From the NCBI GenBank assembly GCA_965224185.1, contig OZ245042.1:5146761-5210760 (forward strand): a stretch of DNA of 64,000 nucleotides, given 5' to 3'. The DNA is from Rhodobiaceae bacterium. Lineage in GTDB: Bacteria > Pseudomonadota > Alphaproteobacteria > Rhizobiales > G965224185. Under the pieces are notes generated by a model, which saw nothing but the letters and a program-made list of their open reading frames with translations, was not told the DNA's origin and made no database searches. The first letter of the stretch is position 1; each line of letters opens with the position of its first letter. Below, one piece after another: positions 14,873-30,849 of the stretch. Made by a program: the position numbers and the translations under genes.

Positions 14873-14891
14873 GGTACGACTCCTGTTTCTA

Positions 14892-16253
14892 CTATCCGCC
14901 GACAATCGTCTGCGGCAGGAAAAGCGCGATTTGCGGGAAGAGGATGAGAAGGCCGATCATCGCGGCCATGGCGAACCAGAATGGCCAGATACCGCCAAAA
15001 ATTTGCCCCATCGGCACTTCGGGCGCGATGGATTTGACGATGAAGACATTGATGCCCACCGGCGGGCTGATCATGCCCATTTCCAGCACGATCACCACGA
15101 TGATTCCGAACCAGATCAGATCCCAGTCGAGTCCGAGCGCGATGGGGATCACGACCGGGATGGTCAGCACCAGCATGGCCATGGATTCCAGGAACATGCC
15201 GAGAAACATGTAAGTGAGGATGATGATCACCAGCACGCCGACATCGCCAATCGGTAGAGAGGTCAGGATTGTCACCAGTTGCGAAGGCAGTTCGGTCAGC
15301 GACATGAACGGGATAAAGACGAAGGCGCCGATGATGATGAGAAAGACGGTGGCTGTTGCATTCATCGTTTGCAGGATGACCGCACGCGTTGCCCGCCAGT
15401 TCAACGACCGGCGCCAAGCGGCAACGACGAAGGTGAGGAATGCACCAACCGAAGACGCCTCGACCGGCGTGAAGAAACCGGTATACATGCCGCCGATGGT
15501 GGCCAGCACAACGCCCAGGATCGGTGCCGCGCGCCAAAGCGACTCGATGCGCTCGGCCGTCCCCGACCGTTCGCCGCGCGGCCCTGCCTCGGGCTTGCGC
15601 GCCACAACCAGATAGATCGAGCCGATAAACAGCAGCGTCAGGATGATGCCGGGAAACACGCCAGCCATGAACAACCGGCCGATCGACTGATCGGTCAGCA
15701 CAGCGTAGATGATCATTCCGCCGGATGGCGGTATCAGGAAACCAAGCGTACCGCCCGCGGCGACCGATCCGGTGGCAAGACTGTCGGAATATTTGTAGCG
15801 CTTCATCTCGGGCAGCGCGACGCGGCCCATGGTGACGGCCGAGGCGAGTGACGAGCCGGACAACGCCGCGAAGCCGGCGCAGGCGGCGATCGTGGCCGAG
15901 GCCAGCCCGCCTTTCATGTGCCCCATCCAGCGATACGCGGCGGCGAACAGATCGTTCGACATGCCCGAGACCCCGGCCAGATTGCCCATCAGCACGAACA
16001 TCGGGATGACCAGCAGATTAAAGTTGGAGGCCGCCTCGAACGTTTCGCCGGCCAGGTTCGAATAGGCAATCTTCCAGCCCCGTGCCCAAGCCTGATCGGA
16101 AGCCATCCCGAGGCCGATGAACTTGTTGGCGTTGGCGATGATGGTTCCGACGAAGCCGACACTCAGCATCGACAATGCAACAGGCATGCGCAGCGCCAGC
16201 AGGATAAAAAGGATGAGCAAGCCCAACAGACCGAGGAGCGTCATGCTGATCAC
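14892..16253 (-). CDS. dctM: TRAP transporter large permease
   Basis: 453-aa polytopic membrane protein with a typical DctM sequence (ALSGSS.A....MG....PEM..Y.Y, GGTLG.LIPPS). Confidence 0.9.
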   Translation of the reverse strand: MISMTLLGLLGLLILFILLALRMPVALSMLSVGFVGTIIANANKFIGLGMASDQAWARGWKIAYSNLAGETFEAASNFNLLVIPMFVLMGNLAGVSGMSNDLFAAAYRWMGHMKGGLASATIAACAGFAALSGSSLASAVTMGRVALPEMKRYKYSDSLATGSVAAGGTLGFLIPPSGGMIIYAVLTDQSIGRLFMAGVFPGIILTLLFIGSIYLVVARKPEAGPRGERSGTAERIESLWRAAPILGVVLATIGGMYTGFFTPVEASSVGAFLTFVVAAWRRSLNWRATRAVILQTMNATATVFLIIIGAFVFIPFMSLTELPSQLVTILTSLPIGDVGVLVIIILTYMFLGMFLESMAMLVLTIPVVIPIALGLDWDLIWFGIIVVIVLEMGMISPPVGINVFIVKSIAPEVPMGQIFGGIWPFWFAMAAMIGLLILFPQIALFLPQTIVGG

Positions 16254-16789
16254 AGCCGGTCACCATCAATCCTGAGTGTCACGACCTTGTCGGTGCGCAG
16301 CAATTGCCAGATGTCAAGCAGGAGAACCATGGCGTAGACCGCCATCGAGATGGAGAGCAAATAGTAGAAAGGCTCGTATGAAATCAGAAGCTGCTGCGTG
16401 GTTTCGCCGAATTTCGCCGCGCTTCCTCCTGCGTGCCAGAGCCCCCACGCCATGATGACGAGAAGCACGGCGCCAAGTGCCTTGACGAGGATCTTCGACC
16501 ATTTCGCGAATCCCGCTGTCATGCGTGATTCCAGCACTTCAATTTCGATGTGCGCGCCGGTCCGCGCCCCAAATGGAATCGACAGCGCAACGATCAGAAC
16601 GAGCGACAGGATCAACAGATCCTCGGCCCCGATGATGGGCGAGTTCAGCGCCTTGCGCATGATCAGCACGTTGAAAACGCTGTAGGCGGTCATGGCTGCC
16701 AGCGTCGTGCCACCGAGCACCAATGAAATCCATCTCAGCGCCGTGTCGAGGTGCCTGACCGGACCGCGTAATTCAGACCTGTTTGACAC
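16250..16789 (-). CDS. dctQ: TRAP transporter small permease
   Basis: The hydrophobic C-terminal 180 aa of ORF 16250..17029. The upstream part overlaps the GST gene, so GTG 16789 is proposed as the start. The start is uncertain. Confidence 0.7.
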   Translation of the reverse strand: MSNRSELRGPVRHLDTALRWISLVLGGTTLAAMTAYSVFNVLIMRKALNSPIIGAEDLLILSLVLIVALSIPFGARTGAHIEIEVLESRMTAGFAKWSKILVKALGAVLLVIMAWGLWHAGGSAAKFGETTQQLLISYEPFYYLLSISMAVYAMVLLLDIWQLLRTDKVVTLRIDGDRL

Positions 16790-16803
16790 CGGATCAACTC
16801 TCG

Positions 16804-17565
16804 TCAGACTTTTGAAAAGTCTGGACACCACTTTAGGACACCTTGCCGGTAGCTTTCCTTGTCGTCGAAAGCGGCCGCCCAGCGTCGGATGTTCGGAAAG
16901 TCTTCGAACGAATAGCCGCAACCGAAGATCACGAAGTAAAGTGGGATCCATGAGATATCGGCCAGGGTGAACTGATCGCCCATGATCCAATCGCGCCCCT
17001 CCAGCGTTGCATCCAGCTTGGCGAAACAAGCCCCCAGTATTGCCTTCGCCTTCAGGAAATCACTGGTGCTGAATTCGCTGCTGCCGGCGTGCTTGGCATG
17101 AAAATTCTTCAGCTCTTCATTTTTCTGAAGCGAATCGTATTTTTCCTGTTCCTCGGCAGACTTCTTCAGTTTCTTGACCAACTTGGTCGCATAGACATAA
17201 GGCTTGCAGGCCGGCACATGGATCGCGGCGGCCAAATGCAGCCATTCCATCATGTCGTCATTGTCAGCGGCGCGCAGCGTCGGCTCTGGATAGGCTTCGT
17301 CCAGATAATCGATGATGTCGTTCGATTCGATGTGAACGACACCGTTGTCGATGAGTGTCGGCACCAGACCGTTCGGATTGATCCCGAAATAGTCGTCGGA
17401 AATGTTCTCTTTCTTCTTCAGATCGATATGATGGCTGGTCCAGTCCAGCCCCTTTTCGATCAGTGTCATGCGAACCCGCATGGAACAGTTCGAAATGGCG
17501 CCATGATACAGGTGCAGCCCCTTAAGAGACTCGACTGATTTGTTTGTCGGAACAATGACGACCAT
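16804..17565 (-). CDS. Glutathione S-transferase, paralog of 12615..13436
   Basis: LHLYHGAISNCSMRVRMTLIEKGLDW....ID..K.E.....YF.INPNGLVPTLIDNGVV..ESNDIIDYLD and FTLADIS align position by position with the other GST. The ATG at 17565 follows GGAGG. Confidence 0.7.
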   Translation of the reverse strand: MVVIVPTNKSVESLKGLHLYHGAISNCSMRVRMTLIEKGLDWTSHHIDLKKKENISDDYFGINPNGLVPTLIDNGVVHIESNDIIDYLDEAYPEPTLRAADNDDMMEWLHLAAAIHVPACKPYVYATKLVKKLKKSAEEQEKYDSLQKNEELKNFHAKHAGSSEFSTSDFLKAKAILGACFAKLDATLEGRDWIMGDQFTLADISWIPLYFVIFGCGYSFEDFPNIRRWAAAFDDKESYRQGVLKWCPDFSKV

Positions 17566-17722: not shown

Positions 17723-18733
17723 TTATTTGTTCAGCGCACCGTAAATCTCGCGGACATTCGAAATGCCGCGGCTTTCGTAGTCCGCGAAGATTGCCTCAAG
17801 CCCTTTGGCGACCGCGGCGTCCATCTTGGCCCGCTCTGCGTCCGAAACCACGGTCCATTTGTAGCCCTTATCAGTAGTTTCAGCGATAAGCTTTTTGGAG
17901 ACCTCGTCGGCACCGTCGAACGACTTTGCAAGTTCAAGCGACATCGGCAGGCCGGCAACGTCGTCGATGATTTTGCGGTGCTCGTCCGAGAGGCTCATAT
18001 AGCGCTCTTTGTTCATGATGGCGTAGGTGACGGCAAAGGTCGCGGGCACATTTTCAACGATGTAGGAAGACACGTCCCAGAAGTTCCAGGGCTGCGTGAT
18101 GTTGTTGTAGGACGCCGTGGTTGCGTCGATGGTGCCGGTCGATAGCCCGGTATACATCTCCGTCACCGGCATCTGTACCGGAACCGCGCCCAGCGCTTCG
18201 ATGATCGGGGTGGTCATGGCCGCGAAAGGAACGATCTTGGCGCCTTTCATGCCCTCCATGGTCGACACGTCACGAGTTGCCGCGAAAAGGTTTCCCGCAA
18301 CCGTGCCGACGGCCAGAACCTTCACGTCTTCATATTCGTCTGCGAGATGTTCGTCGTAGATGTTCCAGATGGCCCGGGTGGACTGATCTGCGTTCTCCGC
18401 CTTGCCCGGCAGGATGGCCAGCATGGTCTTCGGGAAGAGCGCAGGTGTGTAGCCCGAAACACCGAAGGTGATGTCGGCAACGCCCTCAACGGCGCGCTTG
18501 TACTGCTGTACCGGACCAGCGCCCAGTTGACCCGCCGGGTAGAGTTTCATGGTCAAAGTGCCGCCGGAGCGCTTTTCGATCTCCTTGGCGAACCAGGTGA
18601 ACATGCCGGTGTTGGTGTGGTGCTGTGGCGGCAAGAAGGTCGCAACGGATAGCTCTTCACTGGCTGCGGTTTGCACGGAAAGACCAAGCCCGATTGCGAA
18701 CGCCATAGGCACCGGGAAACGTGAGAAATTCAT
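17723..18733 (-). CDS. dctP: TRAP transporter substrate-binding protein (DctP family)
   Basis: 336 aa with a signal peptide (MNFSRFPVPMAFAIGLGLSVQTAAS), a DctP-like body and an SD aggagga before the ATG at 18733. Confidence 0.9.
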   Translation of the reverse strand: MNFSRFPVPMAFAIGLGLSVQTAASEELSVATFLPPQHHTNTGMFTWFAKEIEKRSGGTLTMKLYPAGQLGAGPVQQYKRAVEGVADITFGVSGYTPALFPKTMLAILPGKAENADQSTRAIWNIYDEHLADEYEDVKVLAVGTVAGNLFAATRDVSTMEGMKGAKIVPFAAMTTPIIEALGAVPVQMPVTEMYTGLSTGTIDATTASYNNITQPWNFWDVSSYIVENVPATFAVTYAIMNKERYMSLSDEHRKIIDDVAGLPMSLELAKSFDGADEVSKKLIAETTDKGYKWTVVSDAERAKMDAAVAKGLEAIFADYESRGISNVREIYGALNK

Positions 18734-18770: not shown

Positions 18771-18958
18771 TGGGATCCCAATTCCCGGGAAGTTCATTTA
18801 AACCCGCAGGGTCGACTCCATCCCTTCATATTTAATACCGTTTTGGGATCCCATATCAAGCTAAAGTTTGAAATCTGAGCACGAATTTGTCGATTCGGTG
18901 CTCTTTCGGATACAAAGTGAATGCATATATTATTGCATAACTTGACTTTGGGATCCCA
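18771..18958. promoter_or_regulatory. Three copies of the palindrome TGGGATCCCA in the dctP/gntR divergent promoter region
   Basis: Exact TGGGATCCCA at 18771-18780, 18844-18853 and 18949-18958. The last copy is preceded by ATGCAtatattatTGCATaa. Candidate GntR operator sites. Confidence 0.6.
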
Positions 18959-18976
18959 TGCGTGATCAATAACCGG

Positions 18977-19735
18977 ATGGAATCGATTGACTCAGAACTT
19001 GCCGCACGAATCCGCCAGGACATCATTATGGGTGTCTTTAAGGAAGGGGAGCGCCTGTCGGAGACACGACTGTGCGACATTTACAACGTTTCACGCACAC
19101 CAATTCGGTTGGCGTTGCGACTTCTCGAACGCGAGAAGCTCATCCGCCGAGGTGAAGGCCGGGGCTACATTATTTTCAGCCCGACGGTCGAGGAAATCCT
19201 TCAGGCGGTACAGGTGCGTGGCCACCTGGAGAGCCTTGCCGCACGGCTCATGGCGCAATCTGAAATGCGAGCGCAACACCTGCCCCACATGGCCCGCGCA
19301 ATCGAAACGATCGGCGAAGTGTTGCGTCGCGGCGTTCTGGATGATCCCGCTATCCGCGAGGCGCAGAAAGCCAACAAGGTTTTTCATACAACGATCTTGG
19401 CTGCGTGTGGCAACGACTATGTCGGATACACATGTGAACAGATTAGTTATTTGCCGATGCTGGCTGCCGGTTCGATGGTTTTCGACCGCTCCACCAGCAA
19501 GTCACCAGATCACATGGAACGCGGCCTGTTCAGGCTGCAGTTGGGAAACGCCCAGCATCAGGTGATTTACGAGGCCATTGAAAAAGGTGACGCTGTTCGG
19601 GCTGAAGGTATGATGCGCGAGCACTCGCACACCATGATCGACTACATTCAGACCTTCGAACGAAAAGACGATAGCCTAACAGTGGCCGACCTGATCGCCT
19701 ATTCAGGCGCGGAGCCGCTCACAATGGGTCGTTAG
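18977..19735 (+). CDS. GntR family transcriptional regulator (FadR/FCD-type)
   Basis: wHTH LSETRLCDIYNVSRTPIRLALRLLEREKLI plus a helical FCD-like C-terminal domain. The start is ATG 18977, or GTG 18962 as in the track. Confidence 0.85.
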   Translation: MESIDSELAARIRQDIIMGVFKEGERLSETRLCDIYNVSRTPIRLALRLLEREKLIRRGEGRGYIIFSPTVEEILQAVQVRGHLESLAARLMAQSEMRAQHLPHMARAIETIGEVLRRGVLDDPAIREAQKANKVFHTTILAACGNDYVGYTCEQISYLPMLAAGSMVFDRSTSKSPDHMERGLFRLQLGNAQHQVIYEAIEKGDAVRAEGMMREHSHTMIDYIQTFERKDDSLTVADLIAYSGAEPLTMGR

Positions 19736-19791: not shown

Positions 19792-21090
19792 CTACCGCAT
19801 TAAGTTGGGAAGCCAAGTTGCGATTTCCGGAATCGCGAATAATAGCAGCAAGCCCGCGAGCATCGAGAAAATGAACGGTGTCACGCCGATAAACATTTTG
19901 GCGAGATCAACGTCGCTGACAACCGCTTTGACCGTGAAAACGTTCATACCGATCGGTGGGGTGATCAGCCCTAGTTCGACAACCAGGATAATGATTATCC
20001 CGAACCAGATCATGTCCACGTCCAGCGCGCTCAGCGAAGGCAGGAAAACCGGCACGACCAGCAGCAAGATCCCAAGGGATTCAAAGATCATCCCCAAGAG
20101 AACGCAGACGAAGCAGATCCCGAGTACCAACTGAATAGCGGAAATGGCGCCTTCGCCCTGAACCAACTCAACAAGCTCAAAAGGCATGCCGGTAATATTG
20201 ATGAACTGAGCCAGCATCATACCGCAAATCACAATGGTAAAAATCATTGCTGTGGTTTTGACGGTATCCAAAAAGACATGCAGGAGTTCAGGCCAATTGC
20301 GCAAACGACCCCGGGAAACGGCGAAAATAAAGGCGAAGAACGCGCCGACTGCCGCCGATTCCGTTGGGGTAAAAATACCTGTGTATATGCCCCCGAGGAC
20401 CAGGGCGAACAGCAATACGATCGGCCAGGATGCTCTTGAGGCGCGAAGCTTCTCCGCCCAGGTCGTCGCTTCACCGGGAGGGCCCGAATTGGGAAACAGG
20501 CGTACAACGACCGCTATGCCAACGAGGAACAATGAGACCAGCATGAGGCCAGGAACGATCCCCGCGATGAAGAGCTTTCCGATATCCTCTCCCACGATGA
20601 TCCCGTAGATCACCATCGGCACCGATGGTGGGATCATGATACCAAGCGTGCCGCCCGCGGCGATTGTACCGGTCGACAACGCATCATTATAACCAAAGCG
20701 CCGCATCGGGGGCATGGCGACCCGGCTCATGGTTGCAGCGGTGGCCAATGACGATCCGCTAACTGCTGCAAAACCGGCGCAAGCGAAAACGGTGGCCATC
20801 GCAACCCCGCCCTTTAACCGGCCCAGCCAAGCATAGGATGCCTCGTATAGCTCGTCGGAAATTCCTGCCCTGTGTATGAATGTCCCCATCAGAATGAACA
20901 GCGGAACGACAGACAGGCCGAGATTCATGGTCATCTCGATGATCCATTGGCCGGTAACCGCAATGGAGGCATCGATGCCGCGATATGCAGCAAATCCCAC
21001 GACACCGACAACAAGTGTCGCATACCCCAACGGCACGCCGATAAAGCTGAGAACCAGTACGATCGCCAGTCCGATGAGTGCCTCCGCCAT
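19792..21090 (-). CDS. dctM: TRAP transporter large permease
   Basis: ORF 19792..21273. The true start is probably ATG 21090 (MAEALIGLAIVLVL...), just after the dctQ stop at 21099. The sequence is DctM-like throughout. Confidence 0.9.
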   Translation of the reverse strand: MAEALIGLAIVLVLSFIGVPLGYATLVVGVVGFAAYRGIDASIAVTGQWIIEMTMNLGLSVVPLFILMGTFIHRAGISDELYEASYAWLGRLKGGVAMATVFACAGFAAVSGSSLATAATMSRVAMPPMRRFGYNDALSTGTIAAGGTLGIMIPPSVPMVIYGIIVGEDIGKLFIAGIVPGLMLVSLFLVGIAVVVRLFPNSGPPGEATTWAEKLRASRASWPIVLLFALVLGGIYTGIFTPTESAAVGAFFAFIFAVSRGRLRNWPELLHVFLDTVKTTAMIFTIVICGMMLAQFINITGMPFELVELVQGEGAISAIQLVLGICFVCVLLGMIFESLGILLLVVPVFLPSLSALDVDMIWFGIIIILVVELGLITPPIGMNVFTVKAVVSDVDLAKMFIGVTPFIFSMLAGLLLLFAIPEIATWLPNLMR

Positions 21091-21098
21091 GACGATCT

Positions 21099-21584
21099 CT
21101 AGTCCGCTGATCCGTGGCTGGTCGGTCCTTTGGTGAACACTCTGATACCCGCCACCAACGAGAAAGCGACCAGGACGACGAGCGCGGATATGATCCAGAC
21201 AAACGGGATTTCGAGACCTTCGGTGGCGTCTTCGTAGATAAACGAATCCCTGGCCGCCACGATCAGCACCCACAACAGGAAACCTGTTCCAAGCGTATTG
21301 CTGATCGCATAGATCAGGACGTAGAGTTTCGGTGAGAACTGATTGATAATCGGCTCAAATATCGAAACGACGATATGGCTGCCGTCGCGACTGACAAGGA
21401 TGAAGCCGGCAAAAACCGTCAGCGTCAGTAGGATTTGCGTTAATTCCGCGCTTCCCGATACCGGGGCGGAAAACACATAGCGCATGAACACGTCGACGAC
21501 GGTCAGCAGCATCATCAAGGCGAGCAATACCGACCCGACAATCAGTGCGACGCGACTGATCAAGCCCACGACCTTGTCAAACAT
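21099..21584 (-). CDS. dctQ: TRAP transporter small permease
   Basis: 161-aa protein with four TM segments, placed between dctP and dctM. Confidence 0.8.
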   Translation of the reverse strand: MFDKVVGLISRVALIVGSVLLALMMLLTVVDVFMRYVFSAPVSGSAELTQILLTLTVFAGFILVSRDGSHIVVSIFEPIINQFSPKLYVLIYAISNTLGTGFLLWVLIVAARDSFIYEDATEGLEIPFVWIISALVVLVAFSLVAGIRVFTKGPTSHGSAD

Positions 21585-21647
21585 CGTCTGCCTTTTCGAA
21601 TGTGAAACGGGCCAGGCTCCCGCTGCTAGAAACCTGGCCAGCCCGCA

Positions 21648-22691
21648 TCAATTGGCGTTGATCTTGCTCAGACGCTCGACTTCTGAGCGCATGAAGTCCA
21701 GCGCGGCCTGACCATCGACGCCCATACCGTCGACCTTGGCAATCCAGTCTTTGGCAATCGATTGCGAGTTCTCTTTGAGACTTGCCATCAACGCGTCCGA
21801 CGGCGGGTGGTACTTGACTGTTTTGGCAAGCTTGTCACGGCCTTTCAGGGCCTGTTGGTTCACCTTTACCCCGACCATGCGCGCCAGGTGCTCTCCCGAC
21901 AGGTCGGTCAGGACCTTTTGGTCCTCTGGTGACAGGCTGTTCCACGTCCTTGCATTGATGAAGTGGGTGAAATTGATCGAGAACAGCGACTTTTCAAACT
22001 GTATGCAGGACTTCGTGTAGCTGTCGATCTTGAACTGTAGAATGGAATCGTAAGTGATCCCGGTATAGGCCTCTACGACATTGCGCGAGACGATTTCGTG
22101 GATCTGGACGGCCGGACCGGTCACGGTCGCGACACCCATTTTCTTCAGGATCTTGTCCAGGTTCCCCTTGAGTGACCAGACCTTGCGGGTGGTCAGATCG
22201 TCCGCCGATGCGATCTGCCCATCCGTCAGCGAACACAGTGCTCCGCCCGCGAAATGGTACATGCCCAGAAGGTGGACACCCCGCCATTTTTCAGTGTCCG
22301 CAAAGAACTTCTGATAGGTGTTCCATAGCGCGACCGATGTCGCCTCGGAGTCCCCCTGATGCACCCAAGGCATCATGCCCACATGCGCACCGGGATTCTT
22401 CGGGCTAAGATAGATATTGGCGATGAAGCCGGCATCCGCCGCACCCTTGCGAACGGCGTCCATAACCTTCGGCGGCGGCGCAACCGATTTGGGCGTGAAC
22501 TCGATCGTGAGGCGGCCTTCGGATTTTTTGTGTACTTGATCGGCCCAATCGTTCATCACTTCCCAATAGAAGTGGCTGGGCGGAACGAAAATATTGAACA
22601 GAATTTTCGTTTTCGCAGCGGCCGAAAGCGGCGTCAGCAACGCGCAAGCCAACCCTGCCAGCGCCGCGTTTTTAAAGAACTTCAGGGGCAT
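21648..22691 (-). CDS. dctP: TRAP transporter substrate-binding protein (DctP family)
   Basis: 347 aa with signal peptide MPLKFFKNAALAGLACALLTPLSAAA and an SD ggaggag upstream. Confidence 0.85.
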   Translation of the reverse strand: MPLKFFKNAALAGLACALLTPLSAAAKTKILFNIFVPPSHFYWEVMNDWADQVHKKSEGRLTIEFTPKSVAPPPKVMDAVRKGAADAGFIANIYLSPKNPGAHVGMMPWVHQGDSEATSVALWNTYQKFFADTEKWRGVHLLGMYHFAGGALCSLTDGQIASADDLTTRKVWSLKGNLDKILKKMGVATVTGPAVQIHEIVSRNVVEAYTGITYDSILQFKIDSYTKSCIQFEKSLFSINFTHFINARTWNSLSPEDQKVLTDLSGEHLARMVGVKVNQQALKGRDKLAKTVKYHPPSDALMASLKENSQSIAKDWIAKVDGMGVDGQAALDFMRSEVERLSKINAN

Positions 22692-22735
22692 TTCTTCTCC
22701 TCCAATAGTCAGTTTCCAGGTCGGGTTGCGCGCGG

Positions 22736-24373
22736 TCAGGCCGTGTTTGACGGCTTGCGCGTCGGCAGGATTTCGGGGTTCTTGCCCGCCGCATCAGTTT
22801 CATCCCAGTATCCAATGAGCACGCCCAATTGCTCTTCCATGCCGGTCATCTGGAGATTGTGTTCTTCCGACCAGGTCTCGCGCTGACGATACTGCAGTGA
22901 CCACTCGGCGAGGCGATCGAACATTGACCGGCGGATGTCGGCATGGTCCGGACTACATCCAAGATCGACCAATTCGCCGGGATCACGGACCAGATCGAAC
23001 AGCACCGGCGGATACCCCGGCGCGTATATGTATTTCCATTCCTGGGTGGCGATCATGTACGAACGGCAGTCGAGCGGCATCCGTCCGGTCTCGGGCCGGA
23101 AGACCTGGCATGAATAGTCGTATTCGCTGATGGCGAAGTCCCGCCACTCGGTGTCCTCGCCCCGAAGCTTTGGCAATAGAGAGCGCCCGTCCAGGATGTT
23201 TTTGGCCACCGACCCTCCTTGGTATTCAATAAAGGTCGGGAGCAAATCAATCGACTCGACCAGGGAATCGTCGACTGTTCCACGTGTTCCGTCAGCGGAT
23301 GCACTCGGGTCGACGATGATCAGGGGGATTTTTACGGCGGGGTCGTGGAAGTAGTCTTTGTCGCCCATCCAATGGTCGCCGAGATAGTCGCCGTGGTCGG
23401 ACGTGAAAACGATCAAGGTGTCATCAAACAATCCACGCTCGCGCATAAATTCAAACAAGATCCCGAGCTGATCGTCGATTTGGGAAATCAGCCCCATATA
23501 AACAGGAATGACGGTTTCCCGAGCTATTTCCTTGCCGAAGGTCTTTCCTGCGACCCGGCTCATGAAATGCCGGACAAGCGGATTCGGATCGACCAACTCT
23601 CCGTCGGATTTGACGGCCGGGATAACGTCGCCCGCTGAATACATGTCATTGTATGGCGCTGGCGCGATATAAGGCCAATGCGGCTTGATGTAGGACAGAT
23701 GAAGCAGCCATGGCGTCTGGCCGCCGTCCTGGCTAAGGAAATCCATCGCCCGCCTCGTCATATAGGGCGTCTCCGAATCGTCCTCGCAGACCCTGGCGGG
23801 CAAATTGGCCTGATCGTTGAAGAATCCCGACCGAACCTGCCGACCGGTATCGACCGCGTTGGCAGCCCAATGCCACGGATTGTCGTCTTCGGTATGTCCC
23901 TTGGACTTCAGGTATTCGTTATATGCCAGATTGGGGCGAACCATCGTATCGGGGTGCACACCGTCGTCGCGCTCGAAAGCCTCAAATCCGGCTTGGGAAT
24001 GATGAACTCCGATGTAACTGTCGGGATCGACACCAAGTCTTTCCATTCCCTCTTTATCAGCAACCATGTGCGTTTTGCCGACCAAAACAGTACGCACCCC
24101 AAGCGGGTTAAGGTGGTGTCCAATATTTTTTTCACCGATGCGCAGTGGCGTGAAGTTGGAGGTCGCTCCATGCGAGGATACATAGCGACCGGTATAGGTG
24201 CTCATCCGCGACGGGCCGCAAATTGGTGACTGGCAATAGGCATTGCTGAACCGCACGCCGCGCGCCGCCAGCGCGTCGATGTTGGGGGTCTTTATCGTTG
24301 GATGTCCACTGCAACCCAGATAGTCAAACCTCAGTTGATCGCACATGATGAACAGAATGTTTTTGCGCGCCAT
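22736..24373 (-). CDS. Type I (formylglycine) sulfatase-family hydrolase, phosphonate-monoester-hydrolase (PMH)-like, cytoplasmic
   Basis: NILFIMCDQLR, the signature C-G-P-S-R (C-x-P-x-R) in SPICGPSRMSTYTG, and later LHLSYIKPHWPYIAPAPY, TSDHGDYLGDH and LFDLVRDPGE. The overall pattern resembles Rhizobium PMH as I remember it. No signal peptide. Confidence 0.8.
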   Translation of the reverse strand: MARKNILFIMCDQLRFDYLGCSGHPTIKTPNIDALAARGVRFSNAYCQSPICGPSRMSTYTGRYVSSHGATSNFTPLRIGEKNIGHHLNPLGVRTVLVGKTHMVADKEGMERLGVDPDSYIGVHHSQAGFEAFERDDGVHPDTMVRPNLAYNEYLKSKGHTEDDNPWHWAANAVDTGRQVRSGFFNDQANLPARVCEDDSETPYMTRRAMDFLSQDGGQTPWLLHLSYIKPHWPYIAPAPYNDMYSAGDVIPAVKSDGELVDPNPLVRHFMSRVAGKTFGKEIARETVIPVYMGLISQIDDQLGILFEFMRERGLFDDTLIVFTSDHGDYLGDHWMGDKDYFHDPAVKIPLIIVDPSASADGTRGTVDDSLVESIDLLPTFIEYQGGSVAKNILDGRSLLPKLRGEDTEWRDFAISEYDYSCQVFRPETGRMPLDCRSYMIATQEWKYIYAPGYPPVLFDLVRDPGELVDLGCSPDHADIRRSMFDRLAEWSLQYRQRETWSEEHNLQMTGMEEQLGVLIGYWDETDAAGKNPEILPTRKPSNTA

Positions 24374-24660
24374 TGGACTATCACCGCTCAGAACATTTGT
24401 TTTACTTGTGCTTTACCACCCAATTTGAGCGGCACGTACATGTAGGGCCACTGCTGACCATTCGCACTTTGAGGCCAGAACGTTCTGGAAAATTCGAGTT
24501 GGTGCAGGGGTCATCTGCATGCCGCTATATCCTCCCTTTGAGCTCCCGAACGGGACAGCCGTCAATCCGCGGCTCGCGCTCTATTTGTTCAAAATTGAAT
24601 TCGCAGCCGAGAACCCGAGCCCATCTTCTGAATGAAGTAGGCAGGCACATATTGCATAAA

Positions 24661-24731
24661 TGGGATCCCAAAACAATTGAATTCTGTATGTAATCCAAAA
24701 ATCCTCGATAAATCTTGATTTTGGGATCCCG
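24661..24731. promoter_or_regulatory. Two further copies of the TGGGATCCC(A/G) palindrome in the sulfatase/MBL-sulfatase divergent promoter region
   Basis: TGGGATCCCA at 24661-24670, preceded by attgcataaa as at 18931-18940. TGGGATCCCG at 24722-24731. Confidence 0.6.
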
Positions 24732-24867
24732 TTTATGTCACGTTACACGCAACACTAAGAAATATGCCAGCCATGGGACACGTGAGTTCAGGCTCACTGT
24801 TGGCCAAGCCAAGTGTGGCCAGTTTGGTTGCAAGCCCAAGCGCTTATACTTGGAGGAGAAGCCGCAA

Positions 24868-26145
24868 ATGCACCCGGAACTGAAATCCCATCCCGACTAC
24901 TTTCAAAAGGAAGTGGTTCAGCTTGCAGACAACGTCTACATGGCTTTCGGCTATGCGGCATCGAATGTGTTCATGATCAAAGGAGACGACGGGATCATCA
25001 TCGTCGACACGGCTGAGACGACCAGTGCCGCCGAAAACATCCTGTCGGAGTTCCGCAAGATCACCAATCTTCCAGTGAAAACCATCATCTACACCCATTC
25101 GCACCGCGACCACGTATCCGGCGCAAGTGTCTTTGCCGAAGGCGGAGCGCCTGAGGTATTGGCGAGTACCAGATTTTCCGACGATTCTCTGTTCGTCGCC
25201 TCTGAACATCCGTTACCGACCAAGGCGATGCAGGTGCGCACCAAGCGGCAGTTCGGCATCGGACTGTCCTATCCGGACGAGATCATCGGCATCGGCGTGG
25301 GTCCGGGTGACCGGCCCTTGGCCGGCATGGGCGCCGGTGCGTTGTCCCCGACCCGTCGGATAGGTGACGAGGGTGAAAGCATATCCATCTGCGGCGAAGA
25401 CCTGCAACTGGTCATGGCCCCCGGCGAGACCCCCGATCACATGGTCGTCTGGTATCCGAAAAAGAGAGTGCTGTTCTCAGGCGATAATTTTTACCGTTCC
25501 TTCCCGAATCTCTATGCCATTCGCGGCACGGCATACCGGGATTTTGATGCCTGGGCCGATACGATGGATCAGCTCATGGCCTTTGAACCGGAGGTTCTGG
25601 CCCCCGGCCACACAAAAGCGATCATTGGCGCGAACCAGATCAAGGAGGTGCTGACCGATTACCGCGACGCCATTCGCCATGTCGTCGATGAAACACGCTA
25701 TGGCATGGACGCCGGGCTGACCATCGACCAATTGGCACACTGCGTCAAACTGCCGGAGGAACTGGCTGCCAAACCCCATCTGCGCGAATATTACGGCCGG
25801 GTTGACTATGCGGTGCGCGCCTATTTCGTCGGCACAATGGGCTGGTTTGACGGCAATCCGACATCGCTGGCCTCACTCGCCCCGGATGACGAGGCCAATC
25901 GGTTTATTGAGATGGCCGGTGGCGCGGATGCGGTATTTGAGGCGGCGGCGAAAGCCCGAAACAACGGGGAATATCAATGGGCGCTGCAATTGATCGACCG
26001 TTTGATCTATTCCGATGGAAACGCGGCGCGGGCAATTGCAATGAAAGCAAAAGTCCTGAACGACTATGCGCAGGGCCAAATCAACTGCCCGACGCGCCAC
26101 TATTACCTGCAATGCGCAAAAGAGCTGTCAGCCTCCGGGCGCTAA
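24868..26145 (+). CDS. MBL-fold alkyl/aryl-sulfatase-like protein (type III sulfatase; MBL plus dimerisation domain, no SCP2 tail)
   Basis: THSHRDH metal motif and an alkyl-sulfatase dimerisation-domain-like region (YYGRVDYAVRAYFVGTMGWFDGNPTSL...GEYQWALQLIDRLIY). The ATG at 24868 follows ggaggag. The protein ends right after the dimerisation region. Confidence 0.75.
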   Translation: MHPELKSHPDYFQKEVVQLADNVYMAFGYAASNVFMIKGDDGIIIVDTAETTSAAENILSEFRKITNLPVKTIIYTHSHRDHVSGASVFAEGGAPEVLASTRFSDDSLFVASEHPLPTKAMQVRTKRQFGIGLSYPDEIIGIGVGPGDRPLAGMGAGALSPTRRIGDEGESISICGEDLQLVMAPGETPDHMVVWYPKKRVLFSGDNFYRSFPNLYAIRGTAYRDFDAWADTMDQLMAFEPEVLAPGHTKAIIGANQIKEVLTDYRDAIRHVVDETRYGMDAGLTIDQLAHCVKLPEELAAKPHLREYYGRVDYAVRAYFVGTMGWFDGNPTSLASLAPDDEANRFIEMAGGADAVFEAAAKARNNGEYQWALQLIDRLIYSDGNAARAIAMKAKVLNDYAQGQINCPTRHYYLQCAKELSASGR

Positions 26146-26319: not shown

Positions 26320-27504
26320 CTACCCGTCCTTGATATCACCCGCGCAGATCGTGTTCAGGCTGTGCGCAGCGTCGCCTTGGAAGATGTCTTCGGGGTGTTT
26401 GGCTTCGACGAGAACGAGATCGCCGCGTTTGCCTGTCGCAATTGTGCCGATTTCGGCGGCCGCGCCAAGGGCCTCGGCGGCGTTGGTGGTTATCGCCCGT
26501 ACCGCCTCAACCGGCGTCAGGCCGTATCGTGTGATGCCGAGCCGGGCAGCCGAAACGATGTTGAGATCACCCGTAGCGTCGGGACCGGCTTCCGTGGAGA
26601 TCGCTATCTTCACCCCCGATGCACGCATATCGTCGATCAGCGGCATTTGGCTGTCCTGGTCACGGATGGCAATCTGTGGGACGAGCACCGCGACACCACC
26701 GCTCGAAGCGATCGCGGCGACGCTCAGCGCATCGGATCGACACAGGAATGTTGCCGCTTGCGAGTTGAACGAGGCGGGCAGGGTCGCGCCGGCTGAATCT
26801 GAAAACCGATCGCAAGCAACGCGCGTCGGCGTTTTCTTCCTGTAAAACAGCTCAAGGACCGCGCTCGCCTGATCAAGGTCCAGGCCGGCCGCGTCATCGC
26901 AAAACACCTCCACGGCATCACACGCGCCGTGCTCATAGGTCTTCGGCATGAGGCCGGCCTCGATATCGGCGAGATGGTCGTCCGGGTCCCGATCCCGGGC
27001 AATGAAATGACCGGCAAACAGGGTGACCCGCGACAGGTTGGGCATTTCCGCCTGAAGCCTGCGGCACACAAGCGCGAGCCGGAATTCGTCCCGCGGCGTC
27101 CGGCCGAAGCCGGACTTCAGTTCGAACGCGGTAACGCCGCTTCGTGCCAATTTCGCAAGGCGCCGGCGCATGGATGCAAGCAGATTTTGGTCGTCAGCCG
27201 CGCTGGTCGCGGTCGCAACGGCTTGAACGAAGTCACGATAGTCCTGCGCCGACAGGCGCTCCGGCGCATCGACCCCAGGCGCCCAACATACGGTATTGTG
27301 ACAGGCGACGAAGCCGGGCAGGGCAAGCCGGCCGTCCATGGATGTCGCGTCGGCCAGATCACCGGCGAAGCCGGTCCTCGGTCCGGCATAGGCAATCAGA
27401 CCATCGCTGATTTCGACAACCGCATCCTCGATCAGTCCACAGGGATCGTCGGCGACCGGAACCATGGTCGCTAGATTCAGGTTTGTCAGAACCAGGTTGC
27501 CCAT
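26320..27504 (-). CDS. hutI: HutI-like (imidazolonepropionase-related) amidohydrolase of cmu clusters
   Basis: Amidohydrolase-fold N-terminus (IEDAVVEISDGLIAYAGP...LPGFVACHNT). Its position after paaE matches published cmu clusters. The start is ATG 27504. Confidence 0.7.
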   Translation of the reverse strand: MGNLVLTNLNLATMVPVADDPCGLIEDAVVEISDGLIAYAGPRTGFAGDLADATSMDGRLALPGFVACHNTVCWAPGVDAPERLSAQDYRDFVQAVATATSAADDQNLLASMRRRLAKLARSGVTAFELKSGFGRTPRDEFRLALVCRRLQAEMPNLSRVTLFAGHFIARDRDPDDHLADIEAGLMPKTYEHGACDAVEVFCDDAAGLDLDQASAVLELFYRKKTPTRVACDRFSDSAGATLPASFNSQAATFLCRSDALSVAAIASSGGVAVLVPQIAIRDQDSQMPLIDDMRASGVKIAISTEAGPDATGDLNIVSAARLGITRYGLTPVEAVRAITTNAAEALGAAAEIGTIATGKRGDLVLVEAKHPEDIFQGDAAHSLNTICAGDIKDG

Positions 27505-27515
27505 TGCGATCGCGC

Positions 27516-28598
27516 TCAAAGCTCGTCGAAATCGATGCGGACATGACGCGATGTCGGCTGCGCCAGGCAAGCCAGCACCAGTCCGTCCTCAAGGTCACAT
27601 TCCCGCAACGTCTTCAAAACCCCCGACCGCACCAGTGCCGTGCCGTAAGTGAGCTTGGCGATACAAGACGAACAGTCCCCTTCCTGGCAGGAAAACGGCA
27701 CATCGGCATCGATGCGCAGCAGAGCCTCGAGGATGGATTCTCCGTCTTTAGGTGCAACGTGGTTCTCTTCGCCGTTCATAACGGCCGTGATCTGTCGGCA
27801 TGATCCTTCCTCGCCGGGCGCCTTGGACACCACCGGGATAGGCGGGCCGTCATCGTCGTCGTTCAAGACAAGGTCAAAGCTTTCCCTGCGAATGTCGCGG
27901 TTGCCGAGACCAAATCCCATCAGTACCGATTCCGCTACATCCATGAACGGCTCAGGGCCGCACAGATAGGCACTCATGGGCAGGTTGCCGCGTCTCGCCC
28001 ATACCGGCAGGCGATCCTCAAGATATGTTCTGTCGACGCGCCCGCGGGAACCGGCCCAATCTGCGCCAACGCGCGAAAACACATGTTCGATCTCGGCCAG
28101 GGGGTGATCGCACAATGCCTCCAGATCGTCGCGGAGAACGACATGGTCGGGCGTGCGATTGCCACAGACAAGGGTAATCACCTGGTCGGGCCCCGCATCG
28201 AGCAGGCTCCTTGCGATGGGGATCATCGGCGCAACGCCGCTCCCGGCCGCCAGCAACAATGTATGACGTGGTTCCTCCGGAGGCTTGAAAAACACGCCGC
28301 GTGGCGGGGCAACCTGCAGAACATCACCGACCACCGTCTGATCGACGAGCCATGATGACATTCTGCCCTCCGGCACCTTCTTTGCCGTAATCCGAAAGCC
28401 CGCGGCCCGATCCGGGCTTGAGCTTATCGAATATTGCCGCAACAGAACCTCACCGCGAATTTCCTGTTCAATCGTAATGAATTGCCCGGCGCGGTGAGAA
28501 AACGTGGTGTCGAGGTCCCGCGGGACGTCAAACCACAGGCTCGCCGCATCGCGCCCCTCGGCCTGCTTTGCAGTGATTGTCAACGGATAGGTCGCCAT
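27516..28598 (-). CDS. paaE: PaaE-like ferredoxin:NAD(P)H oxidoreductase (FNR-like plus plant-type 2Fe-2S)
   Basis: RQYSISS FAD motif, AAGSGVAPM NAD-binding motif, and a C-terminal C-x4-C-x2-C (FSCQEGDCSSC) with a later Cys. The start is ATG 28598. Confidence 0.85.
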   Translation of the reverse strand: MATYPLTITAKQAEGRDAASLWFDVPRDLDTTFSHRAGQFITIEQEIRGEVLLRQYSISSSPDRAAGFRITAKKVPEGRMSSWLVDQTVVGDVLQVAPPRGVFFKPPEEPRHTLLLAAGSGVAPMIPIARSLLDAGPDQVITLVCGNRTPDHVVLRDDLEALCDHPLAEIEHVFSRVGADWAGSRGRVDRTYLEDRLPVWARRGNLPMSAYLCGPEPFMDVAESVLMGFGLGNRDIRRESFDLVLNDDDDGPPIPVVSKAPGEEGSCRQITAVMNGEENHVAPKDGESILEALLRIDADVPFSCQEGDCSSCIAKLTYGTALVRSGVLKTLRECDLEDGLVLACLAQPTSRHVRIDFDEL

Positions 28599-28605
28599 CC
28601 GGGGC

Positions 28606-28896
28606 TCAATCCTCCTCTGCGCCGCGCGCCGCGCGAATTTGCTTGGCAAAGGGATTGGGCCGGCTCAGTTTGACATGGCATCGGCAGGGATAGTCGTGAC
28701 CGCAAGTCTTGGCCTTGGGAGTCGCGTCCTTATCCGGCTTGGCGCCGGTGAGGATGTTGACCGCCATCACGGGCGCCACGCGCATGGTGCCGCCGCATGC
28801 GGTGCAGGCCAGTTCAAGGTCTCGCGATTCCTCGAACCCGATGGAAGCTTCGCGGCTGCGGCCGCAGTCTTCACAGCGAAAATCGTATCGTGGCAT
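28606..28896 (-). CDS. fmdB: FmdB-family zinc-ribbon protein
   Basis: MPRYDFRCEDCG...CTACGG is a CxxC...CxxC zinc ribbon of the FmdB/CxxC_CxxC_SSSS type. Confidence 0.75.
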   Translation of the reverse strand: MPRYDFRCEDCGRSREASIGFEESRDLELACTACGGTMRVAPVMAVNILTGAKPDKDATPKAKTCGHDYPCRCHVKLSRPNPFAKQIRAARGAEED

Positions 28897-28960
28897 CAGT
28901 TAACTCGAAGGCATTGCCGGCCCACGCCGGGCGTGGGCCGGCAAGGCGTCGATCGAAGCT

Positions 28961-30817
28961 CTAAGCCGCCGCTTGGCCCAGATGCTCCTTGACCAACGCC
29001 ACCGCCGCATTGGCGTCAAGGCCGTAAGCAACGCCCATCTCGGAGGCGATACCCCGATTGGCGGCGGCACCGCCGCAGATCAGCAGGAACCGGTCGCTCT
29101 TGCCTTGCTCTTCCAGCAAATCCTTGACCTTTTTGACATAGACCGCCGAGGAATTGGTCATGACCGACATGCCGATCGCCACGGCGTCTTCCTTTTCCGC
29201 CGTCTCGACGAACTGCTCGGGCTTCACGTTCTTGCCAAGATCGATGACATTGAACCCGCTCGCCTTCAGCATCAGGCAGACCAGGTTCTTGCCGATGTCC
29301 TGAGTGTTGCCGCGCACCAGGCCGACCACCACGGTGCCTGTCGGCCCTTCGTTGTCGCCCGAGGCTTCCAGCAGCGGGGTGAGAATGGGCATCGCTTTAT
29401 CCATGGTCTTGGCGGCCTTGAGCATGTCGGTCACAAATCGCTCATTGCGCTCATACATGTCGCCGACGATCTTCATGCCGAGCGACAGTCCACCGAACAC
29501 GATCTCCTGGGCGTTCATGCCGCGGTCGAGACCCGTCTTGGTCCATTCGATCGCCTTGTCGCCGTCATATTCCATGATCGCCTCGACAAGCTTTTGATTG
29601 ACCTCATCGGCGGGTGTGGAGTCCGTCGATTCACTTTTGGCCCACAGCTTCCGCATCTGTTCGTCGCCTTCGGTCGACGGTGCGCGCTTGCCGGGATGGT
29701 TGGGATGTCCGGCGAGATAGATGTTCGACAGATCGCCCAGTGCCGCCACATCCATCGGATATTTGATCTCCGCGCATTGCTGGATCATGGCGTGCATGTT
29801 TTCGTCGGGAATGTTCCAGTCGATGTCACAACCCGGCATGACGATCATTCCGCCGTTATAGCCAACCTCGGCGGCCAGTTTCTTGACCTCGTTGCGCACG
29901 TCCTCCGGCGAGCCGTGCATCAACGTGGAAAACGGCGACAGCGTTCCCATCAGGGAAATCTCGCCACCGATCGCCTGTTTGGCCTTATCCATGCCCGGAT
30001 ACATATCGCCGTTGAAATTGCAGCACCCGTTTTGCGATATGTCGCGCCAAATGGGCTGGGTGAACGTGCATGTGTGGGTGAACGCGGCACCCTTCAGCTC
30101 CTCGTTGATATATTTGAACAGCCGTTTCTGATAGGGCAGGCCGTGCTTGCGGTAGACGTCCGGCGGCAAGATGTCGGTCGAGTTGAACGGATCAAGAATG
30201 TTGGTGGCGTCGAGCCCCGCCTCGAACATCATCCGACACACATTTTTGACGATATCGAGCGCGAGTTCGGTTACCTCGTCCGCATAGTCCGGATCCTCAT
30301 TCAGATAGGTCAGAAACTCCGACGATCCGGTCATCAACTGGGCCGTGGTGATCGGCCCGCCGACGGGTGTTGGTATGGCGTGGGTGTCCTTGTAGCCGAG
30401 TTCGATGAACGTGCGGATTTCCTTTTGAATCTCCAGCAACCGGGCGGAGGGTTGAAAGCCCTCGCGCTCATACTTTTCCTTGAAGCGGTAAAAAGCCTCC
30501 TTGGTGGGCGTCGGGTGCCTGACCAGCGAGGGTTGGGCGTAAGGCAGGTAGTCGAGCTCGCAGCCGTCGACGCACTCCACGGGGGTAAACAGATCTGTGC
30601 CGGCAATGATGGCATCGCCGCCGAATTTCTTCTCCGCCTTGGCCTTGGCATGTGCCGAAGCCACACCGTCGCGCAGTGCCTGGTCGACCGTGATGCCGCC
30701 CTCGCGAATCCCCCGCGTCATCAACAGCGGCACCACCGGAACCTGGTCGGGCAGCCCCTGCATGAGACACGCGGTAAAGAACCGTTCACGCCCGGTCATT
30801 TTTTCAATCTGTGCCAT
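28961..30817 (-). CDS. cmuA: CmuA-type bifunctional methyltransferase I / corrinoid-binding protein
   Basis: 618 aa. The N-terminal MtaA/URO-D-like methyltransferase carries an H-x-C zinc motif (FTHTC) and a downstream Cys (MPGCD). The C-terminal B12-binding domain reads VVVGLVRGNTQDIGKN...GMSVMTNS...LICGGAA. Size and fusion architecture match CmuA. Confidence 0.85.
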   Translation of the reverse strand: MAQIEKMTGRERFFTACLMQGLPDQVPVVPLLMTRGIREGGITVDQALRDGVASAHAKAKAEKKFGGDAIIAGTDLFTPVECVDGCELDYLPYAQPSLVRHPTPTKEAFYRFKEKYEREGFQPSARLLEIQKEIRTFIELGYKDTHAIPTPVGGPITTAQLMTGSSEFLTYLNEDPDYADEVTELALDIVKNVCRMMFEAGLDATNILDPFNSTDILPPDVYRKHGLPYQKRLFKYINEELKGAAFTHTCTFTQPIWRDISQNGCCNFNGDMYPGMDKAKQAIGGEISLMGTLSPFSTLMHGSPEDVRNEVKKLAAEVGYNGGMIVMPGCDIDWNIPDENMHAMIQQCAEIKYPMDVAALGDLSNIYLAGHPNHPGKRAPSTEGDEQMRKLWAKSESTDSTPADEVNQKLVEAIMEYDGDKAIEWTKTGLDRGMNAQEIVFGGLSLGMKIVGDMYERNERFVTDMLKAAKTMDKAMPILTPLLEASGDNEGPTGTVVVGLVRGNTQDIGKNLVCLMLKASGFNVIDLGKNVKPEQFVETAEKEDAVAIGMSVMTNSSAVYVKKVKDLLEEQGKSDRFLLICGGAAANRGIASEMGVAYGLDANAAVALVKEHLGQAAA

Positions 30818-30849
30818 TTTCTCCTCCTGGCTAGGGCAACCAAGTTGCT

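Follow-up and report, generated by a model that had tools for sequence, protein, structure and literature searches.

A putative GntR/FCD-regulated gene island of marine bacteria for the predicted uptake and breakdown of sulfated, probably aromatic, compounds

The stretch of 64,000 nucleotides analyzed here from a Rhodobiaceae bacterium (GCA_965224185.1, contig OZ245042.1, positions 5,146,761 to 5,210,760; hereafter the window) contains a single-regulator gene island of about 16 kb (10.2-26.1 kb), of which two sulfatase genes of different types are only a part. With moderate confidence, the island is interpreted as a GntR/FCD regulon by which one or more sulfated metabolites, probably aromatic and non-carboxylate, are taken up and catabolized in the cytoplasm. 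It is conserved, and it probably serves marine bacteria in importing and degrading a sulfated compound, most likely an aromatic one. The analysis established the gene content, the conserved synteny, an operator motif in common, the conservation of active sites, and relationships of family and fold; the enzymatic steps, the substrate, and co-transcription are all inferred. A preliminary description of the window had delimited the region from 19792 to 26145; the genes named there are real, but they cover only part of the GntR regulon, the segment from 10.2 to 19.7 kb having been missed. The island has the following features, with TRAP denoting tripartite ATP-independent periplasmic transporters, SDR short-chain dehydrogenases/reductases, GST glutathione transferases, and MBL the metallo-beta-lactamase fold.

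10248-11429, minus strand: double OsmC-domain protein, 393 aa (PF02566 twice, NF041052), last gene of the long operon
11431-11715, minus strand: DUF2218 protein, 94 aa (PF09981, 1.3e-30)
11845-12606, minus strand: SDR oxidoreductase, 253 aa (PF13561, PF00106)
12615-13454, minus strand: GST1, Ser-type glutathione transferase, about 275 aa (GST_N, GST_C)
13433-14905, minus strand: NAD(P)-dependent aldehyde dehydrogenase (Aldh), about 479-490 aa (PF00171, 6e-155)
14892-16253, minus strand: DctM1, TRAP large permease (PF06808, 3.6e-93)
16250-16801, minus strand: DctQ1, TRAP small permease, start approximate (PF04290; homologs 179-197 aa)
16804-17565, minus strand: GST2, 253 aa, between dctP1 and dctQ1 (GST_N, GST_C)
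17723-18733, minus strand: DctP1, TRAP binding protein with signal peptide (PF03480)
18771-18958, no strand: candidate GntR operators, three exact copies of TGGGATCCCA in the dctP1-gntR intergenic region
18962-19735, plus strand: GntR/FCD-family transcription regulator (PF00392, PF07729)
19792-21090, minus strand: DctM2, TRAP large permease, 432 aa (PF06808, 5.7e-84; TIGR00786 above cutoff)
21099-21584, minus strand: DctQ2, TRAP small permease (PF04290)
21648-22691, minus strand: DctP2, TRAP binding protein with signal peptide (PF03480)
22736-24373, minus strand: predicted cytoplasmic S1 (formylglycine-type) sulfatase, 545 aa (PF00884, 1.2e-42)
24661-24731, no strand: one exact and one 1-mismatch copy of the palindrome in the sulfatase-MBL intergenic region
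24868-26145, plus strand: tail-less type III (MBL) alkylsulfatase-like protein, 425 aa, predicted cytoplasmic (Lactamase_B, Alkyl_sulf_dimr)

The sulfatase gene is followed on the minus strand by the genes for DctP2, DctQ2, and DctM2, with gaps of 44, 63, and 8 nt. The second operon, on the same strand, has the order DctP1, GST2, DctQ1, DctM1, Aldh, GST1, SDR, DUF2218, and double-OsmC, and gntR is positioned between the two transporter/enzyme units. A scan for sigma-70 promoters and terminators gave results at chance level and was uninformative. The perfect palindrome TGGGATCCCA is common to both divergent intergenic regions of the window. Its exact copies in the 64 kb number four, all of them in these two promoter regions: at 18771, 18844, and 18949 between dctP1 and gntR, and at 24661 between the sulfatase and MBL genes; a copy with one mismatch, TGGGATCCCG, lies at 24722. 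In the window and all fetched loci together (1.68 Mb), 41 exact copies were found against about 1.6 expected. All 41 sites fall within 13 island-bearing loci, in equivalent intergenic regions, and no exact copy was present in about 70 loci with sulfatases resembling the arylsulfatases SpAS1 and SpAS2 of Silicibacter (Ruegeria) pomeroyi. The extended consensus TTTGGGATCCCAAA, often flanked by TTGA(C/T)T, is conserved across the 13 loci and is taken as the predicted operator of the GntR/FCD protein, which is itself encoded in every island locus with enough flanking sequence.

Relatives of the sulfatase were scanned in one genome per species, and the proteins of the window were mapped onto the resulting loci (referred to by L numbers). 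All sulfatase orthologs that are at least 66% identical and have sufficient flanking sequence adjoin Aldh-GST1-SDR, and these loci usually also contain the GntR/FCD gene, the tail-less MBL gene, and DctP1-GST2-DctQ1-DctM1. None of the about 70 sulfatase homologs at 53-60% identity, which are SpAS1/SpAS2-like, is accompanied by island genes. The exact arrangement of the window is repeated in Shimia abyssi (L082), Phaeobacter marinintestinus (L083), and metagenome-assembled genomes (MAGs) of Hoeflea (L002, L085). Members of the island are common in marine Rhodobacterales metagenomes and MAGs, and a few of the matches are tagged Tara Oceans. The SDR gene lies directly upstream of the sulfatase gene in L001, L004-L006, L008-L011, and L089 (59-84% identity). 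The double-OsmC protein co-occurs with the island in L007, L008, and L084, the last of which also has the DUF2218-OsmC pair. L001, L003, L004, L006, L036, L084, and L086 encode, in place of DctP2QM2, a TAXI binding protein together with a fused permease of about 785 aa; a second S1 sulfatase, 28% identical, is usually added in these TAXI-type loci and offered no clue to a substrate. A search of plasmids with GST1 and the MBL protein yielded only relatives of at most 38% identity, in other contexts.

Two side observations concern the wider neighborhood of these loci. In Shimia abyssi, a gene of the TauE/SafE anion exporter family (L082, 14621-15346), which is not found in the window, follows dctM2, and its product could export the released sulfate or sulfite. 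In L083 (707-8263, Phaeobacter marinintestinus), L084 (274-3366), and L008 (19522-21532), extra S1 sulfatases are accompanied by other importers (TctABC, TAXI), a regulator of the MarR type, and a small protein with Lactamase_B_2, and the region forms a broader sulfatase neighborhood in these genomes.

In the sulfatase of the window, the PF00884 match spans residues 4-384 (E 1.2e-42). The formylglycine motif C52-G-P-S-R56 is followed by MSTYTGRY, with the extension T61-G-R63, and is invariant in 15 orthologs; the metal and catalytic residues D12, R56, K100, H102, H232, D326, H327, and K339 are present, so that the S1 active-site set is conserved. The N-terminus reads MARKNILFIMCDQLR, and since the metal ligand D12 is already residue 12, there is no room for a signal peptide. 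The Pfam match, the motif, and the position of D12 thus agree with the preliminary description of a 545-aa protein with a C-x-P-x-R signature (CGPSR) and no signal peptide. The best solved structures are 4UPI (SpAS1, 615 bits) and 4UPL (SpAS2, 587 bits), whereas the phosphonate monoester hydrolase (PMH) structures 2VQR and 2W8S reached only 232 bits, choline sulfatases at most 155 bits, and carbohydrate sulfatases at most 135 bits. The NCBIfam models were all far below their cutoffs, including PehA (NF045661, 309 against 900) and BetC (TIGR03417, 214 against 433). The arylsulfatase (AS) and PMH branches are discriminated by K101/H103 in SpAS1 versus Y105/T107 in RlPMH (PMC5488252). At these positions, the PMH branch was read as Tyr and Thr/Asp, and the window sulfatase has K100/H102, invariant in 15 + 70 homologs. 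By these sequence criteria, the enzyme is placed in the arylsulfatase branch of the AS/PMH group, as a sister orthogroup to SpAS1/SpAS2. Its former label, PMH-like, is not borne out by the structure scores or by the K/H pair in place of the Y/T signature, and the assignment to PMH/PehA was rejected on the same grounds and on the PehA cutoff. Clustering with the choline sulfatase BetC, which had been named as an alternative outcome, was not observed: the score is below the cutoff, the binding protein is unrelated to choline/betaine binders, none of betA, betB, and betI is present, and Aldh scores 369 against a cutoff of 669 on the betaine aldehyde dehydrogenase (BADH) model.

The sulfatase shares 53% identity with SpAS1 and 52% with SpAS2 and forms an orthogroup distinct from them. 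Members of this orthogroup are at least 66% identical and are the sole sulfatases embedded in the island, whereas the SpAS-like homologs lack both the island context and the operator. Otherwise, the two groups share full-length homology including the aligned C-terminal extension, the active-site set, the K/H pair, the Cys-type motif, and the lack of a signal peptide; orthogroup-specific residues are confined to seven positions, e.g., D338 beside K339. Aryl sulfate is the primary in vitro substrate of the clade (PMC5488252), and SpAS1 and SpAS2 have no choline-O-sulfatase activity (PMC5870055). As for maturation, PF03781, radical-SAM, and SPASM domains gave no match in the open reading frames (ORFs) of the window that were scanned (nearly all ORFs of at least 180 aa), an expression for the motif of the formylglycine-generating enzyme (FGE) found nothing in the window, and FGE and the anaerobic sulfatase-maturating enzyme (anSME) are absent from the Pfam lists of eight related loci. 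The earlier remark that no FGE gene lies nearby in the 64 kb is therefore true of the ORFs scanned but uninformative, since the scan covered the window, out of a 5.25-Mb genome, and the eight related loci.

The divergently transcribed MBL protein consists of Lactamase_B and Alkyl_sulf_dimr (PF14863, 5.3e-42, profile 1-137/139), with no Pfam match to the SCP2-like Alkyl_sulf_C. It aligns to residues 108-516 of the 658 residues of SdsA1 and ends where the SCP2-like domain starts, as had been described; its stop codon is only 175 bp from the next gene. Since the 120 best of 5044 homologs (E <= 1e-20) are uniformly 422-450 aa long, 74-82% identical, and composed of the same two domains, the tail-less form is a family and not a truncation. 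Neither a hydrophobic leader nor an N-terminal extension was found, and the protein is predicted to be cytoplasmic. A full-length fit to non-sulfatase MBL hydrolases, which had been considered as an alternative, was not obtained: over its full length, the protein aligns only to type III sulfatases, and it is regarded as a genuine alkylsulfatase relative on this alignment.

The zinc ligands H77, H79, D81, H82, E187, D206, and H248 correspond to H169, H171, D173, H174, E280, E299, and H344 of SdsA1, and an Asp at the SdsA1-E299 position, as in D206, also occurs in Pisa1 (PMC5426288). They are invariant in 121 family members, except for H248 (120/121). Residues N214, R219, and R224 align with the sulfate-binding residues N318, R323, and R328 of Pisa1. 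Pro213 stands at the position of Pisa1 H317, the proposed general acid, and of SdsA1 H306. The 121 members, two paralogs (58% identical), and a rhizobial relative (37% identical) all have this proline; the five solved type III sulfatases all have His at the Pisa1-His317 position. In Pisa1, a histidine is the reported proton donor to the sulfate leaving group (PMC3920027). Compared with SdsA1, SdsAP, YjcS, and Pisa1 (SulfAtlas S3), the window protein retains the MBL fold, the HxHxDH motif with the Glu/Asp/His ligands, the alpha-helical dimerisation domain, and Asn/Arg/Arg, but lacks the SCP2 domain, the signal peptide, and the His, at about 33% identity. The family thus keeps the metal and sulfate-binding sites and has neither an SCP2 domain nor an export signal nor the proposed general acid. 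A rhizobial clade of tail-less MBL 'alkyl/aryl-sulfatases' of about 37% identity shares D206 and P213 (L088, Neorhizobium galegae plasmid), its genes adjoining those for an aminotransferase, LysR, Rid, and a C-N hydrolase. The SCP2-less and His-less architecture thus reaches beyond the marine island, probably with other substrates there.

The preliminary description had also assigned the sulfatase its own dctPQM importer, and the same order was found in L002, L082, L083, L085, and L089. Its suggestion of a specific, imported ester as the substrate of the enzyme gains support from the link between sulfatase and TRAP genes, which survives both replacement of the transporter and divergence of DctP2. 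The DctP2 family is small (72 matches), and homologs of 37-51% identity are still encoded beside an S1 sulfatase. In the gammaproteobacterium Microbulbifer sp. S227A (L089), the SDR (72% identity), sulfatase (68%), and DctP (51%) occur together with DctQM, and in a Qingshengfaniella MAG (L090), Aldh and SDR accompany DctPQM and a sulfatase of another subfamily. By analogy with betC-betA-betB, these loci reveal that a sulfatase recurrently goes together with predicted enzymes of alcohol and aldehyde oxidation. A FAD monooxygenase encoded beside the paralogous L090 module was considered as PobA, and this assignment was rejected.

Hydrophobic leaders of DctP1 and DctP2 were read directly from the sequence. 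The ligands of neighboring binding proteins were taken from the titles of the PDB entries. The best solved relatives of DctP1 are 7NR2, 5IM2, 5IGA, and 5I5P, all but 5IM2 titled as aromatic-acid binders; that of DctP2 is 4P56, the ligands of 5IM2 and 4P56 being cut off in the entry titles. The AlphaFold2 (AF2) model of DctP2 (pLDDT 91) has a TM-score of 0.82 to 4P56, and the next folds are titled with coumarate, cinnamate, ferulate, caffeate, 4-hydroxyphenylacetate, or as 'specific for aromatic acid ligands'. The Arg of the K-I-R motif of 4P56 and 7NR2 is replaced by Val in DctP1 (K-I-V, 9/9 orthologs) and by Trp in DctP2 (K-V-W, all orthologs), and the changes are conserved in 12/12 orthologs. 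In canonical TRAP binding proteins, this Arg forms a salt bridge to the ligand carboxylate or sulfonate (PMC11668362). Since it is replaced in both proteins, recognition of the imported ligand probably does not depend on a carboxylate. On sequence and the fold model, both proteins are placed in the aromatic-acid (TarP) clade, minus the carboxylate-clamping Arg. TarP-type proteins (7NR2, 7NQG, 7NSW), 5IGA, and 5I5P are among their closest sequence and fold relatives (TM-scores 0.76-0.82), yet they carry the K-I-R Arg in place of Val/Trp and are only 21-27% identical.

The island has a GC content of 0.55-0.57 against 0.60-0.62 in its surroundings (profile 16-26 kb). A truncated phage-type integrase gene (9454-9987, plus strand), coding for Arm-DNA-bind_3 and a central domain and lacking the catalytic domain, lies just downstream of guaA (7594-9141). 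Together with the low GC content and the Microbulbifer module, it suggests horizontal arrival at a guaA-adjacent site.

The nine best solved relatives of Aldh (336-320 bits) are all aromatic, namely salicylaldehyde, 4-hydroxybenzaldehyde, vanillin, and benzaldehyde dehydrogenases. Both GSTs have a Ser-type N-terminal motif and no NCBIfam equivalog match. The best solved relative of GST1 is the beta-etherase LigF (4XT0, 94.5 bits, full length), which is also the third-best solved match of GST2 (52 bits, nearly full length). The island resembles the LigDEFG beta-aryl-ether pathway in having an SDR alongside two Ser-type GSTs, with LigF as the best solved match of GST1. It differs in the low similarity (94 and 52 bits), in having no Cys-type LigG-like GST, and in its context of sulfatases and TRAP transporters. 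The placement of GST2 between dctP1 and dctQ1 also occurs in L002, L008, L036, and L082-L086, and this unusual position inside a TRAP operon is a hint that glutathione chemistry acts on the compound immediately on its import. On plasmid pDY25-C of Pacificitalea manganoxidans (L087, 5804-10795), a double-OsmC gene is divergent from DctPQM and a GST 35% identical to GST1; a GntR regulator, a catechol-type dioxygenase, another TRAP transporter, and a FAH-family gene lie near this module, which is an aromatic-catabolic setting.

The neighbors of the binding proteins, their Arg replacements, Aldh, GST1, and the sulfatase clade, taken together, point to an aromatic sulfate ester that lacks a carboxylate or is not recognized via one, each of these clues being weak on its own. 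In the proposed pathway, the two TRAP systems, with TAXI-TRAP taking the place of DctP2QM2 elsewhere, would import one or more compounds that are probably aromatic and recognized without a carboxylate, perhaps via the sulfate ester. The cytoplasmic S1 sulfatase would then hydrolyze an aryl-type or activated sulfate ester by S-O cleavage, and the tail-less MBL enzyme may take off an alkyl, possibly benzylic, sulfate. The released or pre-existing alcohol would be oxidized by the SDR and Aldh through the aldehyde to the acid. The Ser-type LigF-like GSTs would carry out a glutathione-dependent substitution (displacement of an ether, halide, or sulfate), and the acid product would enter aromatic central pathways presumably encoded elsewhere in the genome. 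This scheme follows the logic of betC-betA-betB in combining a sulfatase, alcohol oxidation, and aldehyde oxidation with a dedicated regulator and coupled uptake. It departs from it in that the island sulfatase is not BetC, an SDR and an aromatic-type aldehyde dehydrogenase replace BetA and BetB, the importer is of the TRAP type, and a second sulfatase type, two GSTs, and OsmC are added.

A more specific version of the scheme is put forward tentatively, as a possibility: an undescribed route for doubly functionalized marine aromatic sulfates, with uptake by the Arg-swapped TRAP systems, whose binding proteins would recognize a sulfate ester, phenolic desulfation by the cytoplasmic S1 enzyme, benzylic or alkyl desulfation by the MBL enzyme as a new SCP2-less and His-less class of sulfatase, and ether or halide displacement by the GSTs. 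Candidate substrates would be sulfated hydroxybenzyl or hydroxycinnamyl alcohols, tyrosol-type sulfates, and lanosol-type bromophenol sulfates. Sulfated phenolics known from marine plants and algae include zosteric acid, flavonoid sulfates, 4-(sulfooxy)benzoate, 4-(sulfooxy)phenylacetate, and sulfated coumarins, and seawater is reported to contain the bromophenol lanosol (PMC7601137, PMC6278426).

Several points weigh against the interpretation as a regulon for an aromatic sulfate. No genes for ring cleavage or aromatic funneling are present in the island, and the substrate of the island enzymes and of their orthogroups rests on inference. The next, non-aromatic class of aldehyde dehydrogenases scores 308 bits against Aldh, a small margin to 336; the likeness of the GSTs to LigF is distant; and the relatives of the SDR are generic and FabG-like. 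The Arg-less binding proteins could bind something quite unlike the ligands of their nearest relatives. The MBL family, with Pro213 instead of the general-acid His, may not be a conventional sulfatase. Formylglycine maturation of the S1 enzyme is assumed, no FGE having been seen, and the predicted operon structure is derived only from spacing and synteny.

Among the other explanations, a bet-like route for an aliphatic or 'onium' alcohol sulfate, such as a choline-O-sulfate analogue or a small hydroxyalkyl sulfate, is considered doubtful. The sulfatase would free a primary alcohol for oxidation to the acid by the SDR and Aldh. The Trp of DctP2 would then aid in binding a cationic head group, and the lack of the carboxylate Arg in both binding proteins fits this view. 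The Aldh-SDR-sulfatase-DctPQM design also recurs in L090 with another sulfatase subfamily, Aldh there reaching 527 against 669 on the BADH model, and choline sulfatase belongs to the same wider clade (PMC5870055). Against this stand the low BetC score and the lack of choline-O-sulfatase activity in SpAS1 and SpAS2 (PMC5870055), the proximity of the window Aldh to aromatic aldehyde dehydrogenases, the aromatic-ligand clade of the binding proteins, and the two GSTs, which would be left without a role. In an explanation by detoxification instead of nutrition, algal electrophiles (reactive benzylic or allylic sulfate esters, unsaturated aldehydes, hydroperoxides) would be neutralized by the GSTs, Aldh, SDR, and an OsmC-type peroxidase. 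Such a set is typical of electrophile and peroxide stress, GST2 lies within a transporter operon, and the Pacificitalea plasmid has an OsmC and TRAP-GST unit. However, two dedicated high-affinity importers argue for deliberate uptake, and catabolic operons are usually laid out in this way, as a GntR/FCD regulon of the substrate type that includes an importer, which makes detoxification improbable.

Scavenging of sulfated sugars or polysaccharide fragments, such as monosaccharide sulfates freed by other degraders, is judged quite unlikely. S1 sulfatases are mostly carbohydrate sulfatases, some island loci have extra ones (a heparinase-like gene lies near one), and the SDR scores 222 bits on a 'glucose 1-dehydrogenase' subfamily model with a cutoff of 215. 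However, the island encodes no glycoside hydrolase, kinase, dehydratase, aldolase, or isomerase, carbohydrate sulfatases score far below SpAS1, the neighbors of the binding proteins bind aromatic and not sugar acids, and the GSTs remain unexplained. There is very little to recommend a promiscuous PMH-type hydrolase of an imported phosphonate monoester or phosphodiester, the reading of the preliminary description: PehA is the best NCBIfam match by name and the protein belongs to the AS/PMH group, but the PehA and PMH scores are low, K100/H102 stand in place of Y/T or D, the partner is a sulfatase-type MBL protein, and no phosphonate genes are present. Arylsulfatases and alkylsulfatases of Pseudomonas serve sulfur scavenging; a similar induction of the island by sulfate starvation, like ats/sds, can hardly be entertained, as its carriers are marine (about 28 mM sulfate), the regulator is GntR/FCD and not of the CysB/Cbl type, and the sulfatase genes stand in close linkage with genes for importers and carbon-processing enzymes.

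Studies of the AS/PMH clade (SpAS1, SpAS2, and the PMHs) have so far dealt only with its catalytic promiscuity, of which it is a textbook case, and its members, SpAS1 and SpAS2 included, are without a known physiological substrate. If true, the route for doubly functionalized aromatic sulfates would give the clade its first physiological substrate and pathway. The orthogroup offers a way into the natural substrates of the clade through a conserved regulon, a predicted operator, and two importers with binding proteins that can be screened, and cultured carriers of the island are available in Shimia abyssi, Phaeobacter marinintestinus, and Algirhabdus cladophorae. Two protein groups are also defined by the island: a large and highly conserved family of predicted cytoplasmic tail-less MBL 'alkyl/aryl-sulfatases' without the proposed general-acid His, and aromatic-clade TRAP binding proteins without the selectivity-filter Arg. 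The island enzymes are new members or variants of known families, and the literature searched yielded no description of the island or its operator, of binding proteins of the aromatic clade that lack the Arg, or of the tail-less MBL family without the His. As members of the island are common in marine Rhodobacterales metagenomes and MAGs, its substrate may matter in marine organic-sulfur and carbon turnover.

A complete cmu-type (chloromethane-utilization) cluster lies beside the MBL gene (26320-33011, minus strand), in a gene order which we take to be that of the Hyphomicrobium and Aminobacter cmu clusters. It consists of the following genes, with a divergent regulator.

26320-27570, minus strand: hutI-like gene
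27516-28649, minus strand: paaE-like gene
28961-30817, minus strand: cmuA, fusion of MtaA/CmuA methyltransferase and corrinoid domains (TIGR01463, 427 bits)
30850-32106, minus strand: URO-D-like cmuC
32103-33011, minus strand: MtrH-like cmuB
33144-33845: TetR regulator, divergent from the cmu-like cluster

A functional link of the island to the cmu-like genes (hutI, paaE, cmuA), e.g., through methyl sulfate as a one-carbon substrate, was rejected since none of them accompanies the island elsewhere. The window also contains guaB (519-2120), in addition to guaA, and a purine catabolism block (43928-57701) with xdhA/B/C (43928-48823), a PnrA/Bmp-type nucleoside ABC transporter (48843-53553), OHCU decarboxylase, adenosine deaminase, and two M20 peptidase/amidohydrolase genes. 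A third DctP/Q/M transporter (59625-62613) is encoded after an AMP-binding acyl-CoA ligase (57842-59374).

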